Assembly: GCA_963767115.1 (NCBI GenBank)
Contig: CAVYCR010000003.1
Span: forward strand, 175,377-237,224
From: Candidatus Kaiserbacteria bacterium
GTDB taxonomy: Bacteria; Patescibacteriota; Minisyncoccia; Phycocordibacterales; UBA2100
DNA length: 61,848 bases
Direction of reading: 5' to 3'
Part shown: one piece after another, positions 44,044-61,526 of the stretch
Numbering within the stretch: position 1 is the stretch's first letter
Layout of the letters: the number at the start of each line of letters is the position of its first letter
Program-made: the position numbers and the translations under genes
The notes under the pieces: model-generated
What the model was told of the DNA's origin: nothing
Databases searched by the model: none
Seen by the model: only the letters and a program-made list of their open reading frames with translations

Positions 44044-44601
44044 TTATTGCACAGGCATTGTGAAATGAATGCTCTGCTGGGTGTTTAGCAACTCGATAGT
44101 GACGGTGCCAACATCTGTCGCGTTTTCAAACTTGAGCGATTCGGGAATCGTCATAGAGGCGCCCGGCTGGAGCGAAATCGAATTACGGTCGAGGACGTCT
44201 TGCTCGCCGTTTTGCCAGAGCACGTAGACCTTGTATGGATATGAGGTCACGGCGGTCCCGTTATTGGTCACGACAAAAGAGAACGGCACGATCTCTCCGG
44301 TCGTTACCGACTTGGGGATAGCAAGCGGAGTGCCGAGCGTGATCTCGCCTGATGCTTCTGTGGTAGCGGGCTGTGCTTGCGTCGGAGTCGGTTGTACTTG
44401 CGCATCAAGCGACGTGCCAGAAGTATCGTTTATCGGCGCGGCAATGGAAACGGTGCTCGGGGCACCAGACGAGGGCGACGGCATAAGCGCCTCGAAGGAG
44501 GCACGATTGAAATACGCCACAAAAGGCGCCGCGATGATAAGCATGACAAAAACCGGCATGCGGATCGCGTCGACAAATTTCTGAAATTCGCTCGTCCCCA
44601 T
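44044..44601 (-). CDS. Membrane-anchored hypothetical protein
   Basis: Start set at ATG 44601 (MGTSEFQKFVDAIRMPVFVMLIIAAPFVAYF...). TM anchor plus a beta-rich C-terminal domain. Confidence 0.5.
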   Translation of the reverse strand: MGTSEFQKFVDAIRMPVFVMLIIAAPFVAYFNRASFEALMPSPSSGAPSTVSIAAPINDTSGTSLDAQVQPTPTQAQPATTEASGEITLGTPLAIPKSVTTGEIVPFSFVVTNNGTAVTSYPYKVYVLWQNGEQDVLDRNSISLQPGASMTIPESLKFENATDVGTVTIELLNTQQSIHFTMPVQ

Positions 44602-44715
44602 AACGCCAGCATCATACGCTTTTCCTGCTCGAAATCCAGCCGTCCGAGGTTTTGCCGCGCAGACATATAGTGATACTCTTGGCGGCAGTTTCGTACAATA
44701 AAATAGGAGCCTGCA

Positions 44716-45087
44716 ATGACAGGGTACATACGCGAAGTAGTGAGACGTGCACCCAACTACGAACTCATACTCATCCAGTGGCCGGCGGGCTCGATCACGC
44801 CAATCCATGACCACGGCGCTCTGAAGGGTGTCCGCATGGAAGGAGAAGTGATCATACTCGAGGGCGAGCTTGAAGAAACCTACTTCAACAAGGATGGAAA
44901 TCTCGTGACACGTATTCTGAGCGCCGACATGCGTGTGTCAATCAACGATGCCACGATACACGTGGTGAGAAATAGCGGTGAAAGAGACGCGCTCGCGGTA
45001 CACATCTTCCGTTACCCGGACAAGCAATTCGAGCGGCCAAACATGGAAGATTTCATGACCACTTTCGACGCATGGCCCTTCCCATGA
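44716..45087 (+). CDS. Cupin-domain protein (cysteine-dioxygenase-like fold)
   Basis: WPAGSITPIHDHG and IHVVRNSGE cupin motifs. Terminator GCGCGACGGCG...TTTTTTT follows at ~45102-45140. Confidence 0.6.
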   Translation: MTGYIREVVRRAPNYELILIQWPAGSITPIHDHGALKGVRMEGEVIILEGELEETYFNKDGNLVTRILSADMRVSINDATIHVVRNSGERDALAVHIFRYPDKQFERPNMEDFMTTFDAWPFP

Positions 45088-45206
45088 CAAACACTCTCGC
45101 AAGCACCGCCGTCGCGCCCTCAGGCGCGACGGCGATCTTTTTTTAATGTTTTATTCTGTGCCCTAAAATATAGTTATAGTATCTTCTGTGTTAGGATGCA
45201 CTATAT

Positions 45207-45824
45207 ATGTCATACGATAGCCTCGCGCCCAAAGAAACAATTACGAAGACAATTGCCTCACTCTCAGAGCGCGGGCACTTGCCTGAGCTCGTCGAGACAC
45301 GCACCGAAGCCCTCGCACGCATAAAAGAACTCATCCCCGCCGGCGCATCACTGATGAAGGGCTCGTCCCGCACTTTGGAAGAAATTGGCCTCGTTGAATA
45401 CCTCAAAGCTGGCACGCACGGCTGGAACAATCTTCAGGATGCCATCGTGGCCGAGAAGGATCCCGCAAAACAGACACTCCTTCGCAAGCAAGCCGCACTC
45501 TCAGACTTCTATATCGGCAGCGCGCATGCGGTCGCTGAGACCGGAGAGATCATTGTCGCTTCCGGCTCCGGGAGCCAGCTCCCGCACCTCGCCTTCACCT
45601 CGCAGAACCTCATCCTCGTGGTAGGAGCGCAGAAAATAACTCCCAACGAGGCCACGGCGATGGCGCGCCTCAAAGAGCACGTCTTCCCGCTGGAAGACGC
45701 TCGGATGAAAGAGGTCGGCATGGGCGGCAGCTCCCTCTCAAAAGTACTTACTATCTACAAAGAACCAGCATTCCTCGGGCGCAAATCTCACATCATCTTC
45801 GTGAACGAGAAGCTTGGGTTCTAG
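45207..45824 (+). CDS. LUD-domain protein (LutC/YkgG-like)
   Basis: GSAHAVAETGEIIVASGSGSQL...LILVVGAQKI fits the LUD/DUF162 pattern. Confidence 0.65.
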   Translation: MSYDSLAPKETITKTIASLSERGHLPELVETRTEALARIKELIPAGASLMKGSSRTLEEIGLVEYLKAGTHGWNNLQDAIVAEKDPAKQTLLRKQAALSDFYIGSAHAVAETGEIIVASGSGSQLPHLAFTSQNLILVVGAQKITPNEATAMARLKEHVFPLEDARMKEVGMGGSSLSKVLTIYKEPAFLGRKSHIIFVNEKLGF

Positions 45825-45862
45825 GTGAAATTTGATTCCTGTGCTCCGGTGTCAGACGATCC

Positions 45863-45875
45863 CGTGCCAGGCACG
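45863..45875. repeat. Palindrome CGTGCCAGGCACG flanking the second RAYT gene
   Basis: Perfect 6+1+6 palindrome, 68 nt beyond the 3' end of the RAYT gene. Confidence 0.8.
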
Positions 45876-45942
45876 CAGAAACAGGCGTTTCCATGTTGTA
45901 ATATACGTGTTGTTCTTTCCGTCTCAATACCTCTCCATCCGA

Positions 45943-46530
45943 TTACAATGATAGACTCTTCGTAAGTGCATTGCGCAACATCATGAGTTCTTCGGCAGGT
46001 TCAGGCGTATTAATCCACGCTTGGTAGTCCGCAGGCAAATCTACAGGCATTTCTGCAAGCAATGAGTCTTCTTGAAAGTTTCCGTTGATCCGACGATAGG
46101 CGCTTCCCCATCGCCATTCCTCCGGCCGCAAAGTAAGCTTTGCACGTACCGGGTTGCGCTCGATATACTTCAGGACCGTCAAGAAATATCTGTCGTTCTC
46201 GACAAGAAACGACTTGTAACGATCTTGGTATATATGTCCTTCGCCGATCGTATTTGTGCCTGCACGCACGCGATGCGCATGTGTGGAGCAGAGCCATTGC
46301 ATGGATCGAGATATATCTTTGTCGCGAAGCGGAAAGAGTTGCAGATGCCAATGGTTGGGCATCAGCACGTACGAAAGAATGCGCATATCGAAGAGTTCTT
46401 TCATCTCGATGAGCAACAACTCAAATTCTTTATACTCTTGTGCCGTATGGAAAAGCGTTATGCGACCATTTGCACGGTTGATGACGTGGTACACGCAATC
46501 GCCGATATCGATACGGGGACCCCTACCCAT
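45943..46530 (-). CDS. Second REP-associated tyrosine transposase (RAYT, Y1 HUH family)
   Basis: HUH motif VLMPNHWHLQLF and catalytic Tyr IYQDRYKSFLV. Start set at ATG 46530 (MGRGPRIDIG...). Confidence 0.85.
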   Translation of the reverse strand: MGRGPRIDIGDCVYHVINRANGRITLFHTAQEYKEFELLLIEMKELFDMRILSYVLMPNHWHLQLFPLRDKDISRSMQWLCSTHAHRVRAGTNTIGEGHIYQDRYKSFLVENDRYFLTVLKYIERNPVRAKLTLRPEEWRWGSAYRRINGNFQEDSLLAEMPVDLPADYQAWINTPEPAEELMMLRNALTKSLSL

Positions 46531-46566
46531 ATACTTTGCATTATGACATGGTTTTGGCGACTCCCG

Positions 46567-46579
46567 CGTGCCTGGCACG
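46567..46579. repeat. Palindrome CGTGCCTGGCACG, the partner of 45863-45875 with the central base inverted
   Basis: Same arms as 45863-45875, with central T instead of A, so opposite orientation. It lies 37 nt upstream of the RAYT start. Confidence 0.8.
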
Positions 46580-46647
46580 TTGATTCTGAGCCTTCGACAG
46601 CAAAGGTAAATTACCCTAATACATACAAAGTCTTTCCTTTGGCAATT

Positions 46648-47304
46648 TTATAAACTTCTCAGACGTGCAAGATCCGCAACAGAGAGTGGATCCTTATATA
46701 GCTCATTGACTAGCCATAAGCCACTTTCGCGAATCTTTTCTTTTGGCGAGTAGTTACCAAGCCAGCCTATCGACGATTGACACTCATCGCAACGTGAAAG
46801 CGTCGAGATTATCTTCGATTCTAGCGACAACCGTTCCTCCTTGGTGTCGACACGCACAAAAACAAAGCTGAAAGCTTCGCGCATGTAGGCACTTACCCGC
46901 TTCTCTATTTCGATCTGCTTAATCAAATCGACCAAATGCATATGCGCTTTTTTGGCAGCAGCAGACGTCAGATCCAACTCCCATACAGTGAGATAGGGAT
47001 CTTGTGCCTTGGTCAACAATGCGCGACCGATATTTTTGCGAAAGACGCTACGATCTTTATTTTCAAGGACAAAGTGTTGTCGTAGACGGGATGGTAATTG
47101 GCCCGCGCCGGTATGCGTGCCTACGCGCACGATTCGGTCGCTTGTCGTGATCTCGCTCAAGGAAATCTCATGCGCCGTCTCGCCCTCTTCAAACAAAAGG
47201 TAGATACCATCGGTCGGAATTTCTTTTCCATCAAACGGGAATCGGTATCTCTTCAATGAGCGTGCCCACTCATGTAGCTGATGGCAGTTATTTTGCGATT
47301 GCAT
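46648..47304 (-). CDS. GIY-YIG-like nuclease-domain protein
   Basis: DGIYLLFEEGE...RIVRVGTHTGAGQLPSRLRQHF resembles a GIY...Y/VG...R nuclease core. A C-terminal Cys pair (CDECQ) is present. Overlaps the upstream gene by 17 nt. Confidence 0.55.
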   Translation of the reverse strand: MQSQNNCHQLHEWARSLKRYRFPFDGKEIPTDGIYLLFEEGETAHEISLSEITTSDRIVRVGTHTGAGQLPSRLRQHFVLENKDRSVFRKNIGRALLTKAQDPYLTVWELDLTSAAAKKAHMHLVDLIKQIEIEKRVSAYMREAFSFVFVRVDTKEERLSLESKIISTLSRCDECQSSIGWLGNYSPKEKIRESGLWLVNELYKDPLSVADLARLRSL

Positions 47305-47704
47305 GTTTTAAAAAGGCGAGCTGTTCGCCGATACGAAAACCCTGCATTGGCACGGAGATATTTTTGAAATGGGGCGTCAGATACTTGCGATACCGCTCTC
47401 CCGCCAAAAACATTGCCTTGTCGTTTACGAAATCTACTTTATCCCTGAGTTGCTCCAACACCCCTGCGGCCCAGATCCGTACATCCTTGTCTGCCATCGT
47501 GTTAAGTGTCTGTTCGTAGGGTTCTATTGCATCATTCAAGCTCAAAAGACCGTACTTAGCTGACATGATGTAAATTACATCCGGCTTGAGTGATTTTGCA
47601 TACGCAAGATTCTTCTTAAACAGATCGCTAATATATAACTCCTCTGCTCGCGTCTTGTGGTTTCTCTTTTTACTGACGCAAGAGATAAAAACTACTTTTC
47701 TCAT
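47288..47704 (-). CDS. DUF6884-like protein (assignment from memory)
   Basis: MRKVVFISCVSKKRNHKTRAEELYISDLFKKNLAYAK...IYIMSAKYGLLSLNDAIEPYEQTL matches my recollection of the DUF6884 pattern (SC...K...A..LY.S.LF...YA....ILSAKHGL....IEPYD.TL). Start at ATG 47704 or 47713. Confidence 0.5.
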   Translation of the reverse strand: MRKVVFISCVSKKRNHKTRAEELYISDLFKKNLAYAKSLKPDVIYIMSAKYGLLSLNDAIEPYEQTLNTMADKDVRIWAAGVLEQLRDKVDFVNDKAMFLAGERYRKYLTPHFKNISVPMQGFRIGEQLAFLKHAIAK

Positions 47705-47991
47705 GGCGGGCATCCAACGTTTCGAACTTTGTACATCAAGCCCCACAAGGGTATTTTGGCGATAAATCCTCATCGAATCTGAGGTGTCAGCATAGGGATG
47801 CGCTATCAGCGAAATCCCCACAAATCCCAATTTTGAGCAATTTGTGTAGTAATAAGAAGGGTTAAAATAGTGAGCTTTATAGGGAATATATCGAAAAACA
47901 GGGAGATAGACTTATTTTCAAAATGCGGATTTTATTCAGGGCCTTTTTAGATATCTTTTACAATGCCTTCATTTTGTTCTAGCATCAAGGG

Positions 47992-48840
47992 ATGTCATCG
48001 CCTTACTCGGTTCACCTCTACCTACCCGATGGGTCGCCTGAGGGTGTTTTGTTGATGACGAAGGATAACTGGAACGGAACATTAGTCTCGTGCCCAAGAA
48101 GTCTCATAACGAACAGAAAAAGCCTTGCGGAATTTCATCGTCCCGGGATATACATTTTGCTCGGAGCAAAAGACGAGGTTGTCCAGCGTATCTACATCGG
48201 CGAAGGAGATCCGACTATTGATCGACTGATTGATCATAATGCAAAAAAGGATTTCTGGACGAAAGTCGTGTGCTGTACGACTACGATTGACCATGGATTA
48301 CATAAAGCAGAGATACAGTATCTTGAATCCCGATTATGCAAAATCGCGGACGATCTTAAGATCGCGGATTTACAGAATGGAAACACTCCGCAGCTCCCAA
48401 CGCTATCGGAACCCGAAATTGCGCGAGCGGAATCCTTCCTCGCCACCTTCCTGGAACTTGCCCCACTAATGGGTATCGATGCTTTCGAAAAGCCCCGTGT
48501 CGAGCCCACCGAAACAAATAGCTTGTTTATCAAAAACGGACGTGTATCTGCTGAGGGGTATGTAACTGCACAAGGATTCCTGGTAAAGAAAGGGTCTGAA
48601 GCAACGAAGACCGATACGCCCTCACTTCTATCATCGAGCAAAAAGTTACGGAATCACTTGATTGATCATAATGTTTTGATTGCAAAGGGAGAACAACTGG
48701 TTTTTTCACAAGATTATATGTTTCGAGCACCCTCTCCTGCCGCCGAGGTAGTGTTAGGGCGTAGCGAAAACGGACGTCGCGTATGGAAGGACAAAGACGG
48801 CAAAACACTCGCTGAATTACAGGGAGAAATGAAGCAGTAA
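47992..48840 (+). CDS. GIY-YIG nuclease domain fused to a DUF4357-like C-terminal domain
   Basis: N-terminal PGIYILLGAKDE...QRIYIGEGD...R. C-terminal ...YVTAQGFLVKKGSEA...FSQDYMFRAPSPAAEVVLGRSENGRRVWK matches the DUF4357 style as I recall it. Confidence 0.6.
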   Translation: MSSPYSVHLYLPDGSPEGVLLMTKDNWNGTLVSCPRSLITNRKSLAEFHRPGIYILLGAKDEVVQRIYIGEGDPTIDRLIDHNAKKDFWTKVVCCTTTIDHGLHKAEIQYLESRLCKIADDLKIADLQNGNTPQLPTLSEPEIARAESFLATFLELAPLMGIDAFEKPRVEPTETNSLFIKNGRVSAEGYVTAQGFLVKKGSEATKTDTPSLLSSSKKLRNHLIDHNVLIAKGEQLVFSQDYMFRAPSPAAEVVLGRSENGRRVWKDKDGKTLAELQGEMKQ

Positions 48841-48844
48841 AATT

Positions 48845-49888
48845 TCACTCCGCCGCAACGCCGTCTAATAATCTGTTCAGTCGCCCCATTGTCCCCAGAA
48901 CATCACCGGTCGAAAGCTCGAGGCGCAAGACTTTTGCCATTAGTCGCTCGGTAAGTCGGATAATTAGTCCCATTTCTTCGTTCAATACATTTTCGGGTCT
49001 AATGCCAAAGTGGACGAGCCGATTTCTTCCGCGCGTCATGCGCTCGATTGAATGGCGCGCATCTTCGGTCATCTGCACCTCAAAATATCGAGAGAGTACA
49101 TATGTAATTTTCTCTGTCCCGCCCGTATTACGTATTTGATAGTCAGAGAGCGTTCCCTGATTGTGCAGAGCAAAAAGGTGCTCCCAGATAGTCCAGCAGA
49201 GAATAAAAGCAGGCTCGATTCCTTGCTGTTGCATTGCTTGCCGGAAGAGAAAAAGACAGTAGCCGTCGCCATATTCGCGTCGCCAGTCCTCCGAAGAGAT
49301 TGTGAGTAATATTTGATTGACGGTCTTCTCAAGTCCAGCATCAAAGTGTTCGTAATCGAAAAGTGGAACGCCGCGTATTTCGTCTTCGGTCAGGATAGCT
49401 CCGGTACGGATATTCCTGTATTTATCCTCGACGAGAGCCGCCAGACGAAAATCGCCACCATAAAAATGCTCGCGCGGATCTGGTCTCAATACACGAGCTT
49501 GCTCCGCTTCGGCAATAGCGAACACATTGCGTCCGGTAAAAAGCGAAAGGAGCAACAAAATGTCTTGTAGGCGCGTGACTACAGTATCGGCCTCCCACGG
49601 CAGTATTGACGGTTGTTCACGCTCTGGAAAGGCCGCGATTGCCGTGCGTTGATGCGATCCGGTATTCGGTGGCACATTGAATTCATAGGTCACATCGATC
49701 CTATGCTGCAATCCGAGCAATGCAGTCTCGTAACCTTCTACACGCAAAAAACGGTATCCGTCGATATCGAGCGTACGGACATATGCAGGAAATTCGAGGT
49801 TATAAACACATGTAGGGCGCATAGGTAAAAATGTAGTCCGTAGCGGCAGTTTAAATATTTGACGCATCATCCATATCCAGATCCCCAT
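48845..49888 (-). CDS. Hypothetical protein with a C-terminal HEPN-like Rx4H motif
   Basis: RMTRGRNRLVHFG contains R-N-R-L-V-H (Rx4H) in a helical C-terminal region. The N-terminal domain is unknown. The start is uncertain (49888, 49867 or 49822). Confidence 0.45.
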   Translation of the reverse strand: MGIWIWMMRQIFKLPLRTTFLPMRPTCVYNLEFPAYVRTLDIDGYRFLRVEGYETALLGLQHRIDVTYEFNVPPNTGSHQRTAIAAFPEREQPSILPWEADTVVTRLQDILLLLSLFTGRNVFAIAEAEQARVLRPDPREHFYGGDFRLAALVEDKYRNIRTGAILTEDEIRGVPLFDYEHFDAGLEKTVNQILLTISSEDWRREYGDGYCLFLFRQAMQQQGIEPAFILCWTIWEHLFALHNQGTLSDYQIRNTGGTEKITYVLSRYFEVQMTEDARHSIERMTRGRNRLVHFGIRPENVLNEEMGLIIRLTERLMAKVLRLELSTGDVLGTMGRLNRLLDGVAAE

Positions 49889-49994
49889 CAGAGACTAGTT
49901 GCTGTATCTCTGAATCCAGCGCCTCAAAATCCTGAATCTGGTCAGGTTCGATAACCCCATCCTTCACCAGTTCAAGTATTTCATCGGGATCCAT
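49851..49994 (-). CDS. Small, strongly acidic ORF (47 aa), not in the ORF track
   Basis: MDPDEILELVKDGVIEPDQIQDFEALDSEIQQLVSDGDLDMDDASNI has 17 D/E against 1 K. It sits immediately upstream of, and overlaps, the 5' end of the HEPN-like ORF. Confidence 0.4.
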   Translation of the reverse strand: MDPDEILELVKDGVIEPDQIQDFEALDSEIQQLVSDGDLDMDDASNI

Positions 49995-50013
49995 AAATTT
50001 ATATAATTATCGT

Positions 50014-51552
50014 TTACAAGCACAAATCCCGAAGGTGGTTCCAGATCGCATACATAGCGTAAGTATCTAGACCACAATATTCCTTCAGATTCTTTGCAAT
50101 TTCTTTCTTCTCTTCGAGTGAGGTTGTTGGGGCAATCATGTGCCACCACTCATTCGATGCTTGGCCACCTTCGTGGATCTCAAGAGTGGAATACGAAAGT
50201 TCAGGAGCCAGCACCGGTAGCACCTTCTTTATGGATGTACGACCCCTAAAACCGTGGTGGATGTAGTGCTGTGCGAGAAAGACTTTCTCAAGATCAGACA
50301 TGGCGCGATTAAACTCCTCAAAGAACGCCGCGTGATGCGGTAGTCGCTGCGCAATGTTCGCGTTTATAAAGGTTTTTTCAAAAGTCTCATGCCAAACAAT
50401 TACCGACCCCCCGGCGTATACTTCTTTTAACTTTAGGGCTACGGCTTCAGATGGGTCTGAAAACTCCTCGTGCAAAAACTCTACGTGTTCGAGCTTTCCA
50501 TTTGGTTCACGGAGGACATGCAAAGAGAATTGAAACGGAATAAATTTATACGGGCTGTATCCATTAAAAGCTGGGATTGCCGGTGCGTAAGCTTCGTAAT
50601 CGAAAAAATAGAGTGGGAACTTTAAAGAATCGAGAAATTCTGCTATCGCAGTAGTGTCTATCTCTGGCCTTTGTCGTTGATGAGCACGCACTTGGCTAGT
50701 TTGTTTCTCCGAAAGCTCGTGCAATTCAGGGTCGACTTCATCGAGCGTAAAAATTTTCTGTTCAACTAAATTCTGAAGTTTGGTCTTATGAATGCGAGAG
50801 ATATCGTGAACCGAATATTCAGGAACATGGGAGTTGGAATATTGAAAAGTGGTGCAGTGATTACGGCGAGTACCATAGACGCAGTCGCAACCTCCCGATG
50901 GTTCTGTTCCTCGGTTCAAATACTCTCGTGCAGCCTCCATCTTTGGTTCTATCTCTGGTATACGTCCTTCAACTGCCTCCATAACATCATCTATAGCGAA
51001 CAAGGCTTTAATATCGAGATCACCCGCACGAACATATTCCTTGTTTAGGTGTACTAAGTAAGGCCGACCAAGCGGCACATGAGCACGTCTCATAACTGAA
51101 ACCTGAAAGGCAAGATCAGTGACATGATCACGCTCTTTTTGATCGAGCTTCATCGAGTTGGTTCCTTTCACCTCGTAAAGATCCCACAGGTTAGTCTCAA
51201 AATTCCATTTCAATGCGTCATTACGGACAATAAACCCATCTGCGATGAATGTTGCCTGGAAAATAACGGGCGTATGTTCAGCCATAAGTCGTCTTGTATC
51301 TTCGACCGCATGCTCACCCGTAGTAGAAACTTCGATACCGCCAGTGAACAGGTTATGTGCATATGACTCAACCTCGTTCCCTTGCTCCATCAAATGCAAG
51401 TCAAACTCAGATGGTTGAAACTGTCCCTGCAACTCTGGCTTATGCATCTTCAACCGGTATTGGGGTGCAAACCTAAAATGCCGCAGGCCTCCGCAAGAGT
51501 TATGATTTCGTCTTTTTTTGTGTCGGTCATATCTGAATTCCTGACTTACCAC
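50014..51552 (-). CDS. PD-(D/E)xK nuclease N-terminal domain + DUF2779-like protein
   Basis: WDLYEVKGT (D...ExK), Cys cluster GGCDCVYGTRRNHC, then FPLYFFDYEAYAPAIPAFNGYSPYKFIPFQFSLH ... SIKKVLPVLAP ... YCGLDTYAMY, the DUF2779 pattern as I recall it. GTG start. Confidence 0.7.
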   Translation of the reverse strand: MVSQEFRYDRHKKRRNHNSCGGLRHFRFAPQYRLKMHKPELQGQFQPSEFDLHLMEQGNEVESYAHNLFTGGIEVSTTGEHAVEDTRRLMAEHTPVIFQATFIADGFIVRNDALKWNFETNLWDLYEVKGTNSMKLDQKERDHVTDLAFQVSVMRRAHVPLGRPYLVHLNKEYVRAGDLDIKALFAIDDVMEAVEGRIPEIEPKMEAAREYLNRGTEPSGGCDCVYGTRRNHCTTFQYSNSHVPEYSVHDISRIHKTKLQNLVEQKIFTLDEVDPELHELSEKQTSQVRAHQRQRPEIDTTAIAEFLDSLKFPLYFFDYEAYAPAIPAFNGYSPYKFIPFQFSLHVLREPNGKLEHVEFLHEEFSDPSEAVALKLKEVYAGGSVIVWHETFEKTFINANIAQRLPHHAAFFEEFNRAMSDLEKVFLAQHYIHHGFRGRTSIKKVLPVLAPELSYSTLEIHEGGQASNEWWHMIAPTTSLEEKKEIAKNLKEYCGLDTYAMYAIWNHLRDLCL

Positions 51553-51909
51553 AAGTTTACACTGTTTTTTGGAGTAAATAAAGGGCTTTTAGTTACCAAC
51601 ACCTTGAGCCTTCGGCACACTCTAGACTCCTTCGGTAATTGGTGGCATTCCTTCGAGGACGCGCCCAATTCATCACAATATCTTCGATTGAAAAAGGGCC
51701 AAATTGGCGTACATTAAAGACATATGCGCACCCAAAAAACGACTGACAAAACTGAACCATTTCATTCTTTCGCACGAGGAGTGGAAACACTAATTTTGAT
51801 AACCAGCGTCGATTTCGTATACACGCTCAACGGCGCCAACGGCCAGACCATGACTAGCTACGTGACGTCCACCCTGCGCCGGCGACGCAGCCTTCGTAAA
51901 TAAACTTTG

Positions 51910-53040
51910 ATGTTCAGCCAGCAACTTCAATTTCGCTCGACATTCCGCCTGCGACGCCGTGGCATCGCGCGCTGGTGATGGTTTTGTTCGTGCTCGCAAT
52001 CACGGCCGTGCTCGGAGCCGCGATGCTCAGCAGCAGCTCGCTTCAATCGGACGTCAGCGCGACGACGGTCAAATCCGCCGAGGCCGACGCCCTGGCCGAA
52101 TCCGGCGTGCAGATCGCCGAATATTATCTCGCCCATCCCGCCGACAAGCCCGTCGGCTGGCCCAGTTTTTCTTTCACGCCGACCCAATTGCCCAAAGGCT
52201 CGGTCGCCGTGAGCGTCAGCGGAAGCAATCCCTACGTCATCACCTCAACTGCCAACGATTCGACGGATGCCACCGGCGCCATCTCGCGCCATCTCCAGCA
52301 CGGTCGCCGTGAACAGCCAATATGACATCAACGCCGCCCTCACGGCCAACACCGCGATCGCGCTCTCCAGCAAGGTCGCGCTGACGATCAACTCCGTGGC
52401 GCTGGCGGATGTGATCAGCACCGGAACGGTTTCCGGCGCCGCCTCCTTTTCGGTCGACGCCAACTCCGCGACCGGCGGACCCACCGTCGCCAACGTCAAC
52501 ACTTATCAAACCTACACGCTCCCCAGCGGCCAAACCGGAACGGCCCAGAAAATTAGCGGAAATCTCACGATCTCTTCCGCGTCGAGCCTGCCCACGCCGC
52601 TGGCCACGAATCCCGGCGACGTCTATTACGTCTCTGGCAACATCACCTTCAGCCTGGCCGCCGCCACGACTTTCACCGGCACCCTGATCTCCACCGGCAA
52701 CATCGTGCTGAACACCAGCAGCAAAACGCCGACCATCAATCCCGTGACAGGGCTGCCAGCCATCGTCGCGCTGGGCAAATTCACCGCCAACGCCGCCGCC
52801 ACTGGCCTCACGACCAACGGCGTGGTCTTCCTCGGCACCGGCCTGGGCACAACCAACGGAAACACAACCCTGACGCTGCTCATCAACGGCGCCCTGCTGA
52901 TCGACACCGCCGGCATGACGAGCACCTTCGTTGCCCACCTGACCGTCAATTACAATCTGTCCAGCGCCGGCGCCGTCCCAGCATTGAGCACCGTCAACCA
53001 GACGCCCGTGAGCGTCACCGTCACCCAATGGACTGATTGA
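51910..53040 (+). pseudogene. Pseudopilin/PilX-like protein with a long Thr/Asn/Gly-rich beta-helix-like domain; two frameshifts
   Basis: ATG 51910 gives MFSQQLQFRSTFRLRRRGIA. A +2 shift follows in a GC repeat (~51967-51972), then LVMVLFVLAITAVLGAAML... A +10 shift (tandem GCCATCTC duplication, 52278-52297) follows, then ISSTVAVNSQYD...VTVTQWTD* ending at 53040. Confidence 0.65.
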
Positions 53041-53061
53041 TCGCGGGGTCGGCATTTGTAG

Positions 53062-53078
53062 GGTGGGCATTGCCCACC
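53062..53078. repeat. Palindrome GGTGGGCA-T-TGCCCACC (second copy at 60969-60988)
   Basis: Preceded by GTAGG in both copies. The 60969-60988 copy has a 4-nt centre (TACC). Confidence 0.8.
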
Positions 53079-53106
53079 ATCCACGCTGTCAAAACAGGAG
53101 ATCGTT

Positions 53107-53364
53107 ATGAACTTGAAATTCCCATCAGCATCCAACATGCTCGCGATCGTAATTGTCTTGCAGATTCTCATCCTCGCAACGCTCTGGTGCGGCGGTCCGC
53201 TGCAATCGGCCCGAGCACAAATCCCGGATGCCGGCGCCCAGCGCGACGAACAGATCAACCAGGCCAAGCAAACCAACCTGAAGCTCGACACGCTCATCGG
53301 CATTCTTGAGGGCGGCAAACTTCAGATCGAGATCGCCAAGCCCGATGATTCCAAAGGCGGGTGA
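53107..53364 (+). CDS. Small membrane-anchored protein, hypothetical
   Basis: 85 aa with one TM (MLAIVIVLQILILATLW). Intact ORF. Confidence 0.5.
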   Translation: MNLKFPSASNMLAIVIVLQILILATLWCGGPLQSARAQIPDAGAQRDEQINQAKQTNLKLDTLIGILEGGKLQIEIAKPDDSKGG

Positions 53365-53398
53365 ATTCTGTGGCTGCATCGGCGTGAACGCCAATGTT

Positions 53399-53517
53399 CC
53401 CTCTCCATGTACTCAGGGAGAGGGTCAGGGTGAGGGTTCTTCGATTTCGCAGCAACTGTTCGACTGCAGCAAAAATACACCCTCACCCCCGCCCTCTCCC
53501 TGAGTACATGGAGAGGG
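53399..53517. repeat. 119-bp imperfect inverted repeat built from CCCTCTCC...GGGAGAGGG sub-palindromes
   Basis: CCCTCTCCATGTACTCAGGGAGAGGGTCAGGGTGAGGGT (53399-53437) against 53479-53517, with about 3 mismatches. Confidence 0.85.
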
Positions 53518-53548
53518 AGTAAATCGGCTCGAAAGGGTTCCTGTAACG

Positions 53549-54102
53549 ATGAATCGCGTGGGTTCAATTTCACTTCGATCGCGAACGGCGTTCACGCTCG
53601 TGGAGATTCTCTGCGTGATCGTCCTCTTGGCGATCGTCGCGGCGATCGTGCTGCCCGGCGCCGCTTCCGCCGACGAATCCGGCGTCGCCGCATCGGCCGC
53701 GCGAACGCTGATGGCCGATCTTCTTTACGCACAGAGCCGGGCCATCTCCACCCACGCGTGCCACTACGTCGTCTTCGATTCGACCAACGACAGCTACAGC
53801 GTGCAATTTTGCAGCGGGGCGTCGGCCCTTCCCGTGACCGACCCGGAAACCAGCCAGCCGATGAACAGTTCCAATAACCTCACCCGCCTCGGCGGCGCCA
53901 CGATCACGCAGTTCAACGTCGGCCCCAACGCGGGCATCGTCTTTGACGCCATGGGCATTCCGTATGCCTATTCTCCAACCACGCTCACTCCCGCGCTCTA
54001 CGAGGGGCTGCTCGAGCACGCCGGGCACGATCACGGTCAACGGCGCACACCAAGTTGACGATCACCATCGACAACGACAACGGCGCCATGACCGTCCAAT
54101 AA
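53549..54102 (+). pseudogene. GspH/FimT-like pseudopilin, C-terminus needs 2 frameshift corrections
   Basis: Prepilin motif RTAFTLVEILCVIVLLAIVAAI. The C-terminus is split over three frames (...LYEGLLEHAG / GTITVNGA / HTKLTITIDNDNGAMTVQ*). Confidence 0.7.
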
Positions 54103-54239
54103 AACTCCTCGATTGCTTCGGTTCAGGCGCGCTCTGTTTATGCCGAATTTACCGACAGAGGCCTGCGCACTCCGCGGCTCGCGTTCTTGAAATGGACTGA
54201 AAGCAGCCAAAACGGCGGCGTTCGGACCGACATCGCATC

Positions 54240-55619
54240 ATGTTTGGAAAACGTGAAAAACATCAGCCGCTCGCCCTGGACCTGGGCTATGACAGCGTGA
54301 AGCTGCTGCAATTGCAGGTCGCCGGTGGAAGGCTTTCCGCAAAAGCGGCATTCCGCGCACTGCGCTAATCCCGGCGATGCCTATCTGCCCGCCGCCCTCG
54401 ATCTGGCGAAAAATCTCGTCCGCCAGCACGGGCTTGCCGGAAGTCCATGCGTCGCCTGTTTGCCGCGCCACATCGTTCACACCAAAAATCTGCGTCTGCC
54501 GGTGATGCCGGCTTCGGAGCTTACCGCCGCCGTGCAGTTTGAAGCCGTCAATCTTTTTCCCTTCGACACCGAGCAGGCGACCGTGCAGTACCTTGCCGCC
54601 GGCGAGGTTCGCCATGGCGCCGACGTGCGGCAGGAAGTCATCGTCTTCGCCGCCAAAAATGAGGAAGTCGACCAGTTCGTCGATCAGCTTCATCGCATCG
54701 GCCTCGTGCCAGTGTCGCTGGACGTCGAGCCCGTTGCGCCTCTTCCGATCGATCGAACGCTTCGTTCGCCGTCGCGAGGATGAGCAGGAAGTCAGCGTGC
54801 TGGTCGATGTCGGCGCCCAGCGCAGCCAGGTGGTGATCGGCAAGGGTCGCGAGCTGAGCTTCTTCAAGTCCATTGAAGTCGGTGGTCAGCGCTTGAATGC
54901 CGCCGTCAGCCGCAAGCTGGGCATCAGCGTCGAGGAAGCCCGTTCACTGCGAAAACGCCTCTACGCGGAAAACATTTCCGAAGCCGACACGGCGATCGAT
55001 GAGTCCACCCGCCGCGACGCAGTGCGCCAAGCCGTGCTCGACGCGACGCGCAGCACCATCGAAGAACTGGCTCGCGAAATCGCTTTGTGCCTTGGATATG
55101 ACTTCCGTCACGTTCCGCGGCCATCGGCCATAGCGCGTTCGATTGCTCGGCGGCGAAGCGCACGACACGCACTTACTCTCCGTGCTTCAGAGCACTTTGC
55201 CAGTCCCCGTCGAAGCCGGCCGGCCGCTGTTCAATGTCGATCTTTCAGCGGCGAAAATCGTCGCCACTCAAAGCCAGAACAGCGAATGGGCCACCGCATT
55301 CGGACTGGCGTTGCGAAAGACGGAGGGAACCTTTAGTCCGATGGACGGCACGCCAAGGCCGCCGGGAACCTGGCAGCCGGCGTCCAAGGCCGGCCAACCG
55401 CCGGCCGCCGCCCCCGCGCCATCGCCGAGCGTCGCCGCACCGCCAGTATCCACTGAACAGACGTCCCCAACCTCGCCGCGCGGCGCCCTGATCGATCTCC
55501 ATCAACTCATCCCGCAGCATGGCGCTGCCCCGATCGAACCCCAGGTCGGCTCGATCGAAGCCGGCAGCGCAAGAGGCTCTGAATTATCCACCGCCAAATC
55601 GGAGGCCGCCCATGCGTGA
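54240..55619 (+). pseudogene. pilM: PilM-like actin-fold pilus assembly ATPase; 3 frameshifts plus an in-frame TAG
   Basis: MFGKREKHQPLALDLGYDSVKLLQL..., then ANPGDAYLP...FAAKNEEVDQFV...LDVEPVA, then LFRSIERF...VLVDVGAQRSQVVIG...EELAREIALCLGY, then SVTFRGHRP-TAG(55131)-RVRLLGGEAHDTHLL..., then a Pro/Ala-rich tail. Confidence 0.8.
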
Positions 55620-56228
55620 ACTTGAATTCCTCCCGAGATGGTATCCCGGCATGGTACGTCGCCGCCGCGCGTTGATCCTGCAAGTCTGGGCCGCCGCCGC
55701 GCTGGCGCTGGGCCTGTCGATTCAATCGGCCATCGGACATCACGCGCTACGCAACGCCCAGACCAGCCTCAGCGGATTGCAGCAGAAACTCTCGCAGACC
55801 GATGACGATCTGCTCCGCCTCGGCGAGCAGCGCGCCCTTCGATCGCAGTTGCAGCAGCAGAACGAAGTGATCGCGCGCCTCGGCCCGCACGTCCCGGCAG
55901 CGCCATTGATGGCGGCGCTGGCCGAAGACATGCCCCCGCAAACCGCGCTGCTCGACCTCACGCTCAACCAGATCGAAAAGACTCGTCCCGCCTCCGCGCT
56001 GGCGACCGCACGCGGCGACGCCAACGCCGCCGTCGATCGACGCCTCAGCGTCACGCTCACCGGCGTGGCGCCCTCCGACATGGAGCTGGCGAATTTTCTC
56101 GATCGCCTCAACTCGCTCCCCTGCGTGCAGGATATCGCCATGGCCTACGCCAAGGATCGCGACAGGCCGGGCATCTGATGCGCGAATTCTCCATCAACTT
56201 CTGGATCGACTTAAGCGGAGACAATTAA
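55612..56228 (+). pseudogene. pilN: PilN-like protein, one frameshift near 56165
   Basis: MRELEFLPRWYP...RRRALILQVWAAAALALGL (TM) followed by a coiled coil. The C-terminus HLMREFSINFWIDLSGDN* is in another frame. The ATG overlaps the pilM stop. Confidence 0.7.
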
Positions 56229-56277
56229 TCGACCGTCAACGAATCGATTTAACTCCTGCAAATTGCCCGTGAATGTA

Positions 56278-56857
56278 ATGGCCACCGCGAACATCAAAAC
56301 TTCGATCGAGATGTACAAGCGAATGCAGATCGTGATCGGTCTGTCGATGCTCGCCGCCGCGCTGAGCTTCTACTTTCTCGACAGCCGTCCCGGCGTCGCC
56401 CGCATGGCCGCCCTTGGCGACGCCATTCGCGGCAAACAGGAAGAGCTGAACCTCAACGTCGCCCAGGCCAACAACCTTCCCGCAGTCGCCGCAGAAGTTG
56501 CCAAGCTCAAAAATCGGCTCGCCGATTCCAAGCGAGTGCCCAATGGCGCCGAGCTCGGCGAATTCATCCGCGACATCAATACGCTGTCCCAGGAAGCGCA
56601 GCTTCACAAGCAGCGTGTCACGCGCGGCACGGTGCTTCACCAGGGATCTCTATTGCACCCAGCCCATCACGATCGAGTTTGAAGGCGATTTTCTCAACGC
56701 GTTCACCTTCATCCGCGAGCTGGAAAACATGAGCCGGCTCACGCGCATCGACTCGCTGGCGATCCATCAGGTCGACAATTCCAGCGGCCAGGTCAGCGTG
56801 CAGCTCGTCATGGACATTTATTACCGGGAGGATCCGACATGGATTCCCCAGCCATAA
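56278..56857 (+). pseudogene. pilO: PilO-like protein, one frameshift near 56620-56640
   Basis: TM (QIVIGLSMLAAALSFYF), a coiled coil, then PITIEFEGDFLNAFTFIRELENMSRLTRIDSLAI... in a second frame. Confidence 0.7.
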
Positions 56858-57442
56858 ACCAATATGCCGATGCGCTGGCCAAGGCTTGGCGGGCGGATCC
56901 CAAGCGATCCTGGACGCTTCTGGCGCTCTGCGGCGTGCTCGCGATCGTGGTGGGGCGGCTCGCCTTGCATCAATCGCCAAGCACCGCCTCCGCCGCCGCG
57001 CCTCCGGCGCAGCGACCTGGCGGATCGGCAATCGGGCCAAGCCCAGGCCGCGTCTCCACGCCCTTCGGTCGCCCAGTGGGCCAATCAGAAATACAGTGTT
57101 CCCGAGCACAACCTCTTCGTGCCCCGGCTTGAATACTTCCCGCTGGCTGACGGAAATTTATCGGACGACTCCTCCGACGCCGATGCCGCCGCCAAGGCAA
57201 AGTCGGAGCAGGCGGCGGCCGATGAAAAGAAAGAGCGGCAGAAATTAGCGGACCAGCTTCAATCCGAAGCCGCTTCGCTTGAGCTCGAAACCACCATGAT
57301 GGGCCCCACGCCCCGTGCCATGATCAGCGGCGCCTTGGTGGGCGAGGGCGATATGGTCTCCGATTTCCGCGTGGTGAAAATCACCCAGCGTTTCGTGATC
57401 CTGGAAAGCCAGGGCGTGCAGATCGAATTGAAGATGAATTGA
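56839..57442 (+). pseudogene. PilP-like small pilus assembly protein, one frameshift near 57040
   Basis: N-terminal TM (WTLLALCGVLAIVVG), then in another frame ...MISGALVGEGDMVSDFRVVKITQRFVILESQGVQIELKMN*. Confidence 0.55.
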
Positions 57443-57529
57443 AGTTGCAATGAAATGAATCGGCGATCAATTCGCCACAGGTATCGGCCTCGCCGCTGAG
57501 TCGGTTGGCCGATTGCCGGAGGAATTGTT

Positions 57530-59656
57530 ATGACGACATCGAAAAAGGCCAGGGCCTTTCTTTTTTTGGCCGCGGTGTCCGTTTATTCCGGTCATGCGGT
57601 TTCCATCGTCGGCAACGATTCGGCCGCCTATGCCGATGCTCCGGCCGCCGTTGACGCGCCCGCGCCCCCAATCGCTGCGCCGACACCTACAGCCGAAGCC
57701 GTAACGCCAGCGCCAGCCGAAGCCCCCACCGCGCCCGCCACGCAAAACTCCGCCGGTTGGACCCCGCCCAACGATCTCATCGTCGTCGGCCCCAAGGCGC
57801 CCGCGGCCCACATCGTGATGGCCGACAACGGCGCCATCGCCAACCTGAATATCGCAAAAGCAACCGATATGGAAGATGTCCTCCGCTGCATCGCCCAGGT
57901 GACGCATCTGAACATCATCCCCGTCGCCGACGCCCACGGCATCGTCCCCGCGATGGACCTCTACAACGTTACCATCCCCGAAGCCCTCGCCGCCGTGCTG
58001 CACACGAACGATTTGGAGTATCGCCAGGTCGGCAACCTCTATTACATCTATAGCCAGAAGCAGTTGGCCGCCCTCGAAAAGCAGCGGCTGACGACGCAGG
58101 TCTTCACGCTCTATTACACGCCCGCCGACAACGCCGCCGAAATGATCAAGCCCGCGCTGTCAGCCGACGCCCAGGTGAAAGTCAGCAAGGCCGCCATCAC
58201 CGGCATCGACACCGAATCCACCGAAGGCGCCAGCAGCACCACCGGCGGCGGCGGCACCACCGACACCGGCGGAAATTCCCACGCCACGCAAGACATGATC
58301 GTCGTCAACGACTATCCGGAAAATCTCGAAGCCGTCGCCAAAATCATCAAGCAGATCGATCACCGCCCGCAGCAGATTCTGCTCGAAGCCACGATCCTGC
58401 AAGCCACGCTCACCGACGACAACGAAATGGGCGTCGATTTCAGCGTGCTCGGCGGCGTGAATCTCTCCAGCATCGCGCAGGCCCCCTATGCCGCCGGCGC
58501 CTCCGCATCCAACGGCAGCCTCACCAACACCACCGGCACAGCCTCCTCCAGCGCCTCCGGCGCCACCACTGCCGCCCCCGGCGGCACGACCAATTACACC
58601 GCCGCCAACACCGGCTTCACCCAGAACGTCACCCCCGGCGGCCTTCAACTCGGCATCGTCTACGACAATCTCGCCGTCTTCGTCCGCGCCATCGAGCAGG
58701 TCACCAACACTGTCATCCTCGCCAACCCCAAAGTGCTCGCCTGGACAAACAAGAAGGCGAAGTCCTCGTCGGCCGCGAAGACGGATATTTGACGACGACC
58801 GTCACCCAGACGTCGCAAACCCAAACCGTCGCCTTCAACGACACCGGCACCAAACTAGTCTTCCGACCCTTCATCGCCGCCGACGGCTACATCCGCATGG
58901 AGATACCACCCCGAAGACTCCACCGGCGGCACGACGACTCAGGCCAACAACGTCATCCCCTTCAAGGTCACGACGCAGGTCACCAGCAACGTCATGGTCA
59001 AGGACGGCAACACCATCGTCATCGGCGGCCTGTTCCGCGACGACACCCAGACCTCCCGCTCCCAGGTCCCCGTCCTCGGAAACATCCCCTGGCTCGGCAC
59101 GTTATTCCGCTCGCAGGTCGACACGACAACTCGCCAGGAAATCATCATCCTGCTCACCCCGCACATCATCAAAGATGACTCGGCCTACAGCAATCTCTCC
59201 GAAGATCAGCTTAAAGAAGCCGAGAAACTCCGTGTCGGCGTGCGCGAAGGCATGATGTTCTTTGGCCGCGAGCGCCTCGCCGACTCCTCCTACGAAGAAG
59301 CCGTCGCCGAAATGCGCAAGCAAAACCCCGACGTGAACAAAGCCCTCTGGCATCTCGATCTCGCGATCGATCTGAATCCCCAGTTCGTCGAAGCCATCGC
59401 CATGCGTGAACGCCTGACCGGCCAGATCGTCACCGACCCGGACTTCAGCTCCATCCGAAGCTTCGTCCGAAAATCGATCCTCGAAGACGTAACGCCAACA
59501 GATGCCGATGTTCTAGACCCAGGAACATTGCCCGGCCAGCCCGCTTCGCCGACGCAAGCAGCAATCCGTCGCGACCCCGTCCTCGGCCACAACCGAACCG
59601 AGCGACCGGCGCTCCACCGCGTCCGGCAACTAACACGAACCAAAAAAACCCCATGA
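57530..59656 (+). pseudogene. pilQ: Secretin (PilQ/GspD family), two compensating frameshifts (~58742 and ~58908)
   Basis: Signal peptide, N-domains, then the secretin core: ILLEATILQATLTDDNEMGVDF..., ANPKVLA|LDKQEGEVLVGREDGYL...FRPFIAADGYIRMEI|HPEDSTGG...VKDGNTIVIGGLFRD...VPVLGNIPWLGTLFR...EIIILLTPHII. Confidence 0.85.
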
Positions 59657-60908
59657 AAACACCTAAAAAATCATTCTCATCAATCGCCGCCCTCGGCCTG
59701 ACCGCCCTAGCCCTCGCCGGCTGCGCCTCCACCTCGAAGCCGAATCCACCTTCGGCCAAAGAACTCGGCGCCCAGCAGTGGAATGCCACCCGCGCCTCAG
59801 TCCTCCTGACGCTGGCTAAAGATCAATACAACCACGGCAACTTCGACAAGTGCAAGCAGACAATCGATCAAGCCGAGCGCCTCGATCCCAGGAGCGATGC
59901 CATTTCCGTCCTGAGCGCCCAGCTAGCCATCGAGCAGGGCGACATGGACATCGCCGAGCACGAGCTTTCCGAGGCTCGCACCAACAACCCCAAAAACGCG
60001 CAAGCGTTTTATTTAAGCGGCGTCGTCTACCAGGCTGGGACCAACCCCAGCGCGCCTATGAAATGTACACGCAAGCCGCCACGCTCGACTCCACGCAACT
60101 CGCCTACATCATGGCCTGCGCCGAGATGCTCGTGTCGATCGACCGCGCCCCCGAAGCCCTAGCGTTATTGCAGGACAAGGTCTCCCAATTCGAAAACAGT
60201 GCAGTCTTATGTGACGCCGTAGGAATGCTCTTATCCCAACAACATCGCGACGCCGAGGCGATAGACATGCTCCAGCGCGCCACCATCCTGGCGCCCGATG
60301 ACAAAGGCATTAGAGAGCACTACGCCCTGGAGCTTCTGCGACTCCACAACTATCCCGAAGCCGCCGACCAACTCCATCGCCTCCTCTCGCCGCCGGCCCC
60401 CGATCCCTACAATCTCCCCGACCCCACCGAGGTCGCGAAGTCCGATCCCTACGCAACCCGCGCAGACCTCTGGCTGGCCCTAGGCCAATGCCAGATGGAG
60501 ATGCACGACCCACACACGCCGAGCAAAGCTTCGAATCCGCCGTCAGTTTAGACGCCAACAACCCCGCCGCCTGGCGCACCCTGGCAAATCCGCTCTAATG
60601 AATAACGACGCAAAATGCCGCCTGCAAGTCCGCCGACCGCGCCTTGGCCCTGAACCCCCAGGACCCCGAAACGCTGCTCTTCAGCGGCTACGTAAATCTA
60701 AAAACCAACAAACCCCAGCAAGCGTTAATCAACTTCGCCGCCGCCAGCAAGCTCGATCCGAAGGACACGCTGACTCTCTGCATGATGGGCTACGCCTTAG
60801 AGCGAATGAACCAACCCCAGCGCAACAGAGTATTACGCCGAGGCTCTAAAACTCTCCCCGAATGACGACCTGGCCAAAACCCTGATGAACGACGCGCGGA
60901 AGATGTAA
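59653..60908 (+). pseudogene. TPR-repeat lipoprotein (PilF/PilW-like), at least 5 frameshifts
   Basis: Lipobox LALAGCAS. TPR-like helices are spread over all three frames, ending ...LSPNDDLAKTLMNDARKM* at 60908. The ATGA overlaps the secretin stop. Confidence 0.65.
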
Positions 60909-61068
60909 TTGCGACGCCGGGCCACTCTTCGCGTATACCATCGGATTCGCGACATCATCTTCCCGTAGGGTGGGCATACCTGCCCACCAACGACTCATGA
61001 TTGCGCTCGACGCTGGTCCACGGCTCAATGGATCGGTGCGATCCAGACAAAATGCGAAAGCCGGGCAT

Positions 61069-61432: not shown

Positions 61433-61526
61433 CATCCAGGCATCAATGGTATTTGTCGACAGATGCCCCCTTTTCCGTTTCCTTCAATAGCCGGAGGCTA
61501 ACAGCCTCCGGTCCCGGACCCTCCCG

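Follow-up and report, generated by a model that had tools for sequence, protein, structure and literature searches.

The segment at about 45.9-51.8 kb of the window (the whole 61,848-nt stretch of Candidatus Kaiserbacteria contig CAVYCR010000003.1 that was analysed) is probably a horizontally acquired defence island of the candidate phyla radiation (CPR), with at least four independently working modules; this reading is given a probability of roughly 0.72. The modules are a DUF6884 protein paired with a GIY-YIG nuclease (genes g2 and g1, the candidate system PDC-M57), a single GIY-YIG-DUF4357 nuclease (g3, PDC-S14), a compact HEPN protein (g4) and a DUF2779 dual nuclease (g6). A small acidic open reading frame (ORF), g5, lies between g6 and g4. 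The island is a patchwork of separately acquired, mostly catalogued candidate genes and not one new multi-gene system. The evidence consists of observed family assignments, catalytic motifs, gene fusions, the lack of cross-linkage between the modules, a deletion scar and a discordance between assemblies; the biochemical activities and the anti-phage role of the products are putative.

All six ORFs listed by the first-pass annotation, which was made from the letters alone, were found at the positions it gave, and five of its six domain guesses (g1, g2, g3, g4 and g6) were verified by Pfam or PADLOC profiles and by motifs. Its picture of an accessory defence-type cluster with no housekeeping gene also holds: the segment is compositionally distinct and of nucleic-acid-targeting content, and none of the genes is a classical housekeeping one. 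The GC content of the segment is 0.44-0.48, compared with about 0.53-0.59 in the left flank and about 0.62 to the right of 51.9 kb, and it jumps from 0.45 to 0.62 inside approximately 200 nt at the right edge. No methyltransferase (MTase), helicase or ATPase was found between 46.6 and 51.6 kb by Pfam, PADLOC and NCBIfam profile scans, as had been noted; the NCBIfam profiles gave nothing useful for g1-g5. The closest relatives of the island proteins are from Patescibacteria (CPR), in agreement with the proposed CPR-like genome, and the layout in three transcription units is consistent with the orientation and spacing of the genes (Table 1). The opinion that the locus fits no known system is not supported, since three of the six genes fall into two candidates of PADLOC-DB v2 (PDC-M57 and PDC-S14) and the HEPN type of g4 is that of ApeA, a validated defence protein.

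Table 1. Features of the island and its edges (positions in the window)
Feature	Coordinates	Strand	Description	Basis or remark
RAYT	45943..46530	-	REP-associated tyrosine transposase, bounding the low-GC segment on the left	Pfam Y1_Tnp 8.5e-16
g1	46648..47304	-	GIY-YIG_3-type nuclease, PDC-M57 B component	PADLOC, PF26468
g2	47288..47704	-	DUF6884 protein (YaaA/DpdC-like DNA-binding fold), PDC-M57 A component	Pfam, PADLOC
g2-g3 intergenic region	47705..47991	.	divergent, 287 bp	GC 0.36-0.42
g3	47992..48840	+	PDC-S14: GIY-YIG nuclease (~residues 50-131) and C-terminal DUF4357 (220-273)	PADLOC, Pfam
g4	48845..49822	-	325 aa: N-terminal alpha/beta domain (~1-160) and ApeA-type HEPN (~163-320)	homologues, AlphaFold2 (AF2) model
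g5	49851..49994	-	acidic ORF of 47 aa with a net charge of -15	called as a gene on contig L058
g6	50014..51447	-	477 aa, DUF2779: Cas4-like PD-(D/E)xK and DEDDy 3'-5' exonuclease	PF11074
HTH_17 remnant	51450..51530	-	MerR/excisionase-type, deletion scar, 26 codons and stop (MTDTKKDEIITLAEACGILGLHPNTG*)	blastn, tblastn
Junction of window and independent assembly	51801..51802		contig L058 matches up to 51801, then departs	

The independence of the modules follows from their distribution. Within 8 kb of g4 homologues, no homologue of g1, g2, g3, g5 or g6 was found in 51 genomes, which belong to CPR, Chloroflexota, Planctomycetota, Myxococcota and DPANN archaea. The 80 metagenomic DUF2779 loci were near-empty in the same respect, lacking g1, g2, g4 and g5 throughout and showing an S14-like gene in a single case. 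The linkage of the units implied by the first-pass annotation, for which it had suggested a co-occurrence check, was therefore not found.

The g2-g1 pair matches both components of PDC-M57. The g1 product (218 aa), recognized earlier as GIY-YIG-like, aligns at residues 4-216 with the hidden Markov model (HMM) PDLC04713 of PDC-M57B (3.2e-88, model positions 2-206 of 211), and PF26468 (GIY_YIG_3) is precomputed for an identical protein encoded by contig L058. The local Pfam copy gave only a weak GIY_YIG_2 match (0.1). The protein contains G33-I-Y35. Its comparison with the PDC-S14 profile by hhalign was without significance, the PDB sequence search returned nothing meaningful, and a pattern scan of IMG/VR contigs found no relatives. 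The g2 product (138 aa, ATG 47704) matches Pfam DUF6884 (2.6e-43), as had been guessed, and PDLC04712 of PDC-M57A (1.2e-56, model positions 1-135 of 138), the HMM alignment backing its start; DpdC (1.5e-5) and YaaA (1e-3) are matched weakly. Both DUF6884 motifs as defined in PMC11701544 are present, CxxxK as C9-x3-K13 and LSAxxG as M47-S-A-K-Y-G52. The 3' end of g2 overlaps the start of g1 by 17 nt on the same strand, as noted earlier.

An exhaustive HMMER search gave 1246 representatives of g1 homologues. About one third of the best 150 have an N-terminal extension of ~140 aa, and DUF6884 was found at the N-terminus of nine of the ten longer homologues tested, some of which add a C-terminal DUF7662. 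These DUF6884-GIY-YIG_3 fusions are independent (Rosetta-stone) evidence that g2 and g1 work together. DUF6884 has a YaaA-like DNA-binding fold, for which Pfam curators predicted base-flipping into a pocket (PMC11701544). With such a fold, g2 could sense unusual, modified or damaged bases, and the g1 nuclease would cut the DNA marked by g2. PDC-M57 itself was not mentioned in the literature searched. In the divergent region between g2 and g3, promoter-like hexamer pairs lie at 47957-47985 (+) and 47998-47971 (-); the promoter and terminator scan as a whole is at chance, with no excess over the shuffle expectation.

The g3 product matches the PDC-S14 model PDLC04925 over its full length (1e-83, residues 1-279) and carries DUF4357 in its C-terminal part (8e-22), as predicted earlier together with the GIY-YIG domain. 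Residues Y54, Y68, G70, R78, H82, E112 and N129 do not vary among 33 homologues, which come from many phyla. This set is the GIY...YIG/Arg/His/Glu/Asn catalytic pattern, spaced as in I-TevI. The AF2 model (predicted local distance difference test, pLDDT, 92.6) arranges residues 52-122 in a beta-beta-alpha-beta-alpha order, with strands at 52-57, 66-72 and 91-97 and helices at 75-84 and 105-122. An hhalign comparison with the UvrC N-domain, made with an approximate UvrC sequence, gave E = 0.0016. Pfam GIY-YIG models did not match at 0.1, and neither the g3 sequence nor its profile returned anything meaningful from PDB sequences. On plasmids, 51 homologues carry the PGAP name 'GIY-YIG nuclease family protein'. 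Those of Acinetobacter plasmids stand directly 3' of hsdR-hsdM-hsdS, those of Prosthecochloris plasmids are close to type I restriction-modification (R-M) genes, and those of Rhodothermus plasmids adjoin a DEAD helicase, a nucleotidyltransferase and a MTase. CPR homologues with 80% identity to g3 adjoin serine recombinases, type I R-M, DpnII R-M, an EcoRI-type MTase and GmrSD-HNH. Other carriers of DUF4357 are GmrSD and McrB-type type IV enzymes (PMC4619093, PMC5714182, PMC11090510). The g3 product is presumably a self-contained restriction-like endonuclease, possibly modification-dependent, which backs up R-M systems. An experimental test of PDC-S14 was not found in the literature searched.

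The Rx4H HEPN-like motif assigned to g4 by the first-pass annotation is invariant in 30 homologues (R266-N-R-L-V-H271), as are CWTIWEH and E214-H215; the proposed span of 48845..49888 did not stand. The listed ORF reaches 49888, and all homologues begin with M(K/R)xxxVYNLEFP, which corresponds to M23 (49822). Starting there, g4 does not overlap g5. A total of 265 homologues were found. Eleven of the 30 family members match the Pfam family HEPN_Apea (best E 2.4e-6), four match HEPN_Swt1 and one matches RiboL-PSP-HEPN; the PADLOC ApeA models match none of the 30, bar one weak Cas13-ApeA match, and no PADLOC model matches g4 of the window. In the AF2 model (pLDDT 89.3) residues 163-320 are helical. 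The search of the g4 profile against PDB sequences yielded nothing meaningful.

The g4 homologues appear to be solitary. A search on both sides of the homologues in 45 loci revealed no small partner ORF that is conserved, nor was a minimal nucleotidyltransferase antitoxin of the HEPN-MNT type found beside g4. Neighbours vary and are often defence genes: N6_N4 MTase/ResIII, DUF4062, GmrSD_N, AAA_13 and PD-T7-5-like genes. A Type ISP R-M enzyme is located directly upstream of the g4 homologue in 5-6 loci, and the three closest homologues adjoin large serine recombinases or type IV genes. By analogy with ApeA, g4 may be an HEPN RNase that stands alone, has a sensor domain of its own at the N-terminus, and would cleave RNA (tRNA) upon infection and act by abortive infection. 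Separately, a 321-aa gene of similar size precedes the g4 homologue with a 4-nt overlap at L060:5039-6966, and it matches the validated defence genes PD-T7-5/PD-T7-1 (1.9e-18).

The g6 product matches PF11074 (DUF2779) with 8e-31. In its N-terminal PD-(D/E)xK domain D77...E92xK94 is invariant; C187xC189...C198 and the DEDDy residues D283-x-E285, D385 and Y457-x3-D461 are invariant as well. More than 3700 clusters of homologues exist, with 55-92% identity among the best 120, of which the named ones are Patescibacteria; the PDB sequence search gave nothing meaningful. The homologues begin with approximately 24 conserved residues (ISKTxFxxxLxCPKxxWLK) that g6 of the window lacks. Of the four-cysteine cluster, C187, C189 and C198 are kept, and the near-invariant cysteine of the N-terminal CPK motif, an Fe-S cysteine, is missing because the first 24 residues were deleted. 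The Cas4-like D..ExK motif, the Cys cluster and the DUF2779 assignment of the first-pass annotation thus stand, and its coordinates (50014..51552) do not. The gene starts with ATG 51447, the 35 ORF codons upstream are not coding sequence of g6, and DNA similarity to relatives is limited to 50021-51455. The extension of the ORF to GTG 51552 was rejected as coding, since its homology, in a different frame, is with the beginning of an HTH_17 gene.

Window positions 51457-51562 match L055:2254-2360 with 77% identity (blastn), including promoter-proximal homology to 51562, and HTH_17 residues 1-25 were located by tblastn at 51530-51456 with 84% identity. The stop of this remnant is 2 nt ahead of the g6 ATG. 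In L055, an intact HTH_17 gene heads the series HTH_17-SNF2-N6_N4 MTase-ResIII/TnsA-like-DUF2779; L157 has SNF2-MTase-ResIII-DUF2779 with 80-85% protein identity, its contig ending within the SNF2 gene. Since the HTH_17 remnant abuts g6 and relatives carry the cassette, the window has a deletion scar of ~7.6 kb; L058 shows the scar as well. Originally g6 would have been the last gene of a restriction-like HTH_17-SNF2-MTase-ResIII-DUF2779 cassette, and the deletion would have taken the helicase, methylase and endonuclease genes together with the first 22-24 codons of g6. It is thus no intact unit of its own, and what remains is a truncated and possibly crippled gene. On their CPR contigs the cassettes occupy L055:2287-11503 and L157:1-8446; in L055, its neighbours are a serine recombinase and a terminase/ParB-MTase module. 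The cassette has the look of a restriction-like or DISARM-like system on an integrative element.

Directly upstream of DUF2779 in 68 metagenomic loci, PDC-S37/Hhe-like genes were found in five cases and SNF2/DrmD-like genes in four; other close relatives of g6 abut Alw26I-type R-M or S14/GmrSD. The DUF2779 family, which includes MMSYN1_0389 and UU173, combines Cas4-like and DEDD domains (PMC13621843, PMC3985635). We conclude that it is often, but not always, associated with defence. Loci L068, L072, L086, L115 and L129 have the PDC-S37/Hhe-matching protein immediately upstream on the same strand. This protein has ~1240 aa with an AAA_11/AAA_12 helicase and a MTES_1575 nuclease; in L129 it is an ORF of 358 aa at the end of the contig. 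The two genes may form a recurrent pair.

Several observations weigh against a defence island. Published experimental proof of defence was not found for these families in the literature searched, and PDC entries are candidates by genomic association only. The g4 product of the window itself matches no Pfam or PADLOC HEPN model at E <= 0.01. Its AF2 model gave nothing at E <= 0.001 by Foldseek against PDB and viral libraries (HepT, 7ae6, is at rank 19 with E = 2.7), and the g3 model gave no PDB match at the same threshold. The homology of g5 discussed below is weak. The remaining points concern DNA repair or maintenance of the host, which we regard as an improbable function for some or all of the genes. 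In such a case DUF6884 and GIY-YIG would form a lesion-recognition and incision pair and DUF2779 would be a repair exonuclease. A Bacillus member of DUF6884 binds DNA lesions, and interactions with abasic and RNA-base lesions are described for the family member YfjM (PMC11701544); lesion binding of this type makes a repair role of DUF6884 possible. Phage DUF6884 genes with 50% identity to g2 sit in replication modules, between DnaB and ribonucleotide reductase genes, without a GIY-YIG partner, so that the DNA-binding module is not specific to defence. A DUF2779 gene is quasi-essential in the minimal Mycoplasma JCVI-syn3 (PMC13621843). The family is very widespread and well conserved in CPR; many of its CPR homologues adjoin housekeeping genes, which are the directly upstream genes in several loci (ATP synthase epsilon, thioredoxin, sigma-70, lysyl-tRNA synthetase). 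Against repair stand the atypical GC of the segment and the nearest relatives of g3, g4 and g6, which lie in R-M, recombinase or prophage-like contexts without synteny. Furthermore, PADLOC drew M57 and S14 from defence-island association, and an N-terminal truncation like that of g6 is not expected to be tolerated in a repair enzyme. The phage modules mentioned, seen in IMG/VR contigs L143-L147 at ~4001-4486, consist of a 5'-3' exonuclease, a DnaB-like helicase, DUF6884 and ribonucleotide reductase.

That the island is partly an artefact of assembly, the true locus being different, is unlikely. The question was addressed with L058, an independent Logan assembly contig of 7991 bp from run ERR11630394. 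It agrees with window positions 44280-51801 at 99.99% identity over 7522 nt with identical gene order, spanning all six genes and the HTH_17/g6 junction, so that the island, with all its gene junctions, is no artefact peculiar to a single assembly. The right-hand 10 kb of the window is another matter, being contradicted by L058 from 51801/51802, where the composition jumps. Past this point L058 continues with a low-GC gene, the N-terminus of which matches PDC-M36A (2.5e-7), while the window opens within the 3' end of a reading frame and proceeds to pilin-like genes with a GC of ~0.62. The composition break, taken by the first-pass annotation as the border of the island, is hence unsupported as a natural boundary and is most likely a chimeric join. 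All sequence to the right of 51801 is probably foreign to this genome, and the true island probably extends beyond 51801. The junction was also probed from the right by an exact look-up of a right-flank protein, which had no matching record. The region at 51801-61848 (~10 kb) has a strong negative GC skew and prepilin/pseudopilin-like ORFs, for example at 53549-54058.

A single integrated system of the six genes, in which sensor nucleases, a HEPN effector and a Cas4-like processor would cooperate, is very hard to sustain. The genes are tightly packed, with g6, g5 and g4 co-oriented at gaps of 19 and 28 nt; a S14 homologue adjoins DUF2779 in L149-151 and L065, and in L062 the distance between a g4 homologue and a DUF2779 gene is 5 kb. 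These cases are opposed by the absence of other island families from all 51 g4 neighbourhoods and of g1, g2, g4 and g5 from all 80 DUF2779 loci, and similarity to close g6 relatives ends exactly at the gene ends. In L149, S14 is 80% and DUF2779 58% identical to the window copies, and this unequal divergence implies separate histories.

The acidic ORF g5, correctly described earlier as highly acidic, has 16 D/E residues and one basic residue (K), and a gap of 19 nt separates it from g6, which lies upstream, and one of 28 nt from the start of g4, downstream. Pfam gave a weak SHOCT-like match (0.0047). Acidic ORFs of 43 aa in CPR islands form a clear family of their own, MDE(E/D)LFE...NDLxLDEAQEVQ..., and g5 scored above composition-preserving shuffles against them by Smith-Waterman (p = 0.0002 for L149 and 0.006 for L064). 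They are situated right after DUF2779 in L064 (5357-5488), two genes after it in L149-151 (L149:1753-1884) and beside S14 in L158 (9737-9868). Among 81 loci, a small acidic ORF right after DUF2779 was seen in the closest clade only, with one flagged case and the 78-aa ORFs of L052 type; g5 is therefore not a general partner of DUF2779. It is a probable small island-associated protein; it might inhibit a nuclease or mimic DNA.

That g1 and g3 are selfish homing endonucleases in a graveyard of mobile elements is scarcely credible: GIY-YIG is indeed the classical homing-endonuclease fold, and the RAYT, the HTH_17 remnant and the deletion scar mark the region as a rearrangement site, but neither gene lies within an intron, an intein or a host gene, neither has NUMOD/IENR-type modules (Pfam gave only DUF4357 and DUF6884), more than 1000 homologues show g1 fused with or coupled to DUF6884, and an attachment of g3 to R-M operons is seen recurrently.

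For the RAYT, 46530 is the most likely start; the listed ORF starts at GTG 46578, and the gene call on L058 has 195 aa from M17. It matches the NCBIfam family REP_Tyr_transpos with 4e-17 and 62.5 bits, below the 80-bit cut-off. The gene is bracketed by 40-nt inverted repeats (45863-45902 and 46540-46579) that hold 13-nt palindromes CGTGCC(A/T)GGCACG, namely CGTGCCAGGCACG and CGTGCCTGGCACG. The first-pass annotation had counted it as the second RAYT; a first one was not confirmed, as tblastn at 1e-3 found no paralogue elsewhere in the window. Rfam gave no credible match at 45.0-52.5 kb, its sole match being tfoR at a sub-threshold 21.5 bits.

Farther to the left, a large serine recombinase (Resolvase, Recombinase and Zn_ribbon) is encoded at 30629-31963 in a second low-GC stretch (28-32 kb) and adjoins a tRNA-Arg(CCT) at 32083-32155. 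Its DNA is 65-72% identical to the recombinases flanking the related islands L055, L059, L060 and L158. A 314-aa reverse transcriptase (RVT_1, 7.7e-23) lies at 35834-36778; among the PADLOC models, the generic RT model (2.4e-52), RT_UG17 and RT_UG4 fit it best, and the ORFs next to it have no family match. It may be a defence-associated reverse transcriptase or a retron-like element. A tRNA-Ser with the anticodon ACT, unusual for bacteria, was found by ARAGORN at 18617-18705.

Little has been charted of the defence repertoires of CPR/Patescibacteria, which are often said to lack CRISPR. The locus suggests that CPR carry mosaic, fast-turnover defence islands like other bacteria, drawing on families known only as candidates. 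Small clonable candidates are at hand in the M57 pair, S14 and the 325-aa HEPN protein. Two undescribed systems are proposed here tentatively, and we would not put them at even odds. In the first, the g4 family would be a single-gene HEPN defence that is compact and widespread and has a new sensor domain; PADLOC v2 lacks the family, of which at least 265 clusters occur among CPR, Chloroflexota, Planctomycetota and archaea. The second is a CPR cassette system in which DUF2779 may be the terminal nuclease of the conserved HTH_17-SNF2-N6/N4 MTase-ResIII/TnsA-like-DUF2779 series, and it may also stand repeatedly directly downstream of PDC-S37/Hhe-like helicase-nucleases. If so, a restriction-like or DISARM-like system would use a Cas4-like/DEDDy exonuclease, and the enigmatic DUF2779 dual nuclease would have a possible role in helicase/methylase restriction-like cassettes. 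The window would then hold the cassette as a decayed copy, accompanied by a travelling small acidic protein as its possible regulator or inhibitor. In practical terms, a probable chimeric join is flagged in a public contig of 237 kb.

Compared with known systems, the g2-g1 pair is PDC-M57 without structural difference: both HMMs are matched at full length by adjacent, overlapping genes of the same strand, and both DUF6884 motifs are present. It differs in its CPR host, and many relatives are single fused proteins. The g3 gene resembles PDC-S14 in the full-length HMM match, the complete GIY-YIG catalytic set and the C-terminal DUF4357, and differs from the copies of several plasmids in having no attached type I R-M operon. 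An overlap of PDC-S14 with Gao_RL/GAO_29 was noted in PMC10855318, the latter being now called MANTIS (bioRxiv 10.64898/2026.09.23.753747); g3/PDC-S14 shares only the C-terminal domain with it (PADLOC DUF3780 model, 3e-16).

ApeA is a single-gene HEPN defence (Gao 2020) and reportedly forms ring oligomers, with its ligand in a conserved pocket. ApeA has ~580 aa with an N-terminal domain, a Mid domain and a HEPN_ApeA domain and cleaves tRNA anticodon loops, its activators being 5'-phosphorylated deoxydinucleotides (bioRxiv 10.64898/2026.01.26.701840); it is found embedded in R-M operons (PMC3710099). The g4 protein is likewise a solitary HEPN protein with no conserved partner, with the Rx4H motif, a HEPN domain nearest to HEPN_Apea and R-M or defence neighbourhoods. 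Unlike ApeA, it has 325 aa and a small alpha/beta N-domain in place of the N-terminal and Mid domains. As the HEPN type is all that the two share, g4 was not filed as ApeA; assignment to ApeA proper was rejected on the missing three-domain architecture of ~580 aa and the lack of a PADLOC ApeA match.

The two-domain architecture of the DUF2779/PF11074 family and its D...ExK and DEDDy motifs are conserved in g6, which differs from the family in lacking the first 24 residues and with them the N-terminal Cys of the four-Cys cluster. For the SNF2-MTase-ResIII context of its closest relatives, no description was found in the DUF2779 literature searched. A classical R-M system was rejected, as none of the six proteins has a MTase domain; the cassette of the g6 relatives has one. 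The segment differs from classical defence islands and R-M loci in keeping no MTase, helicase or ATPase, evidently lost by deletion. It shares with classical defence islands the atypical GC, a content variable among close relatives, several unrelated genes of nucleic-acid-targeting type next to one another, and a neighbourhood with recombinase, RAYT and prophage genes.

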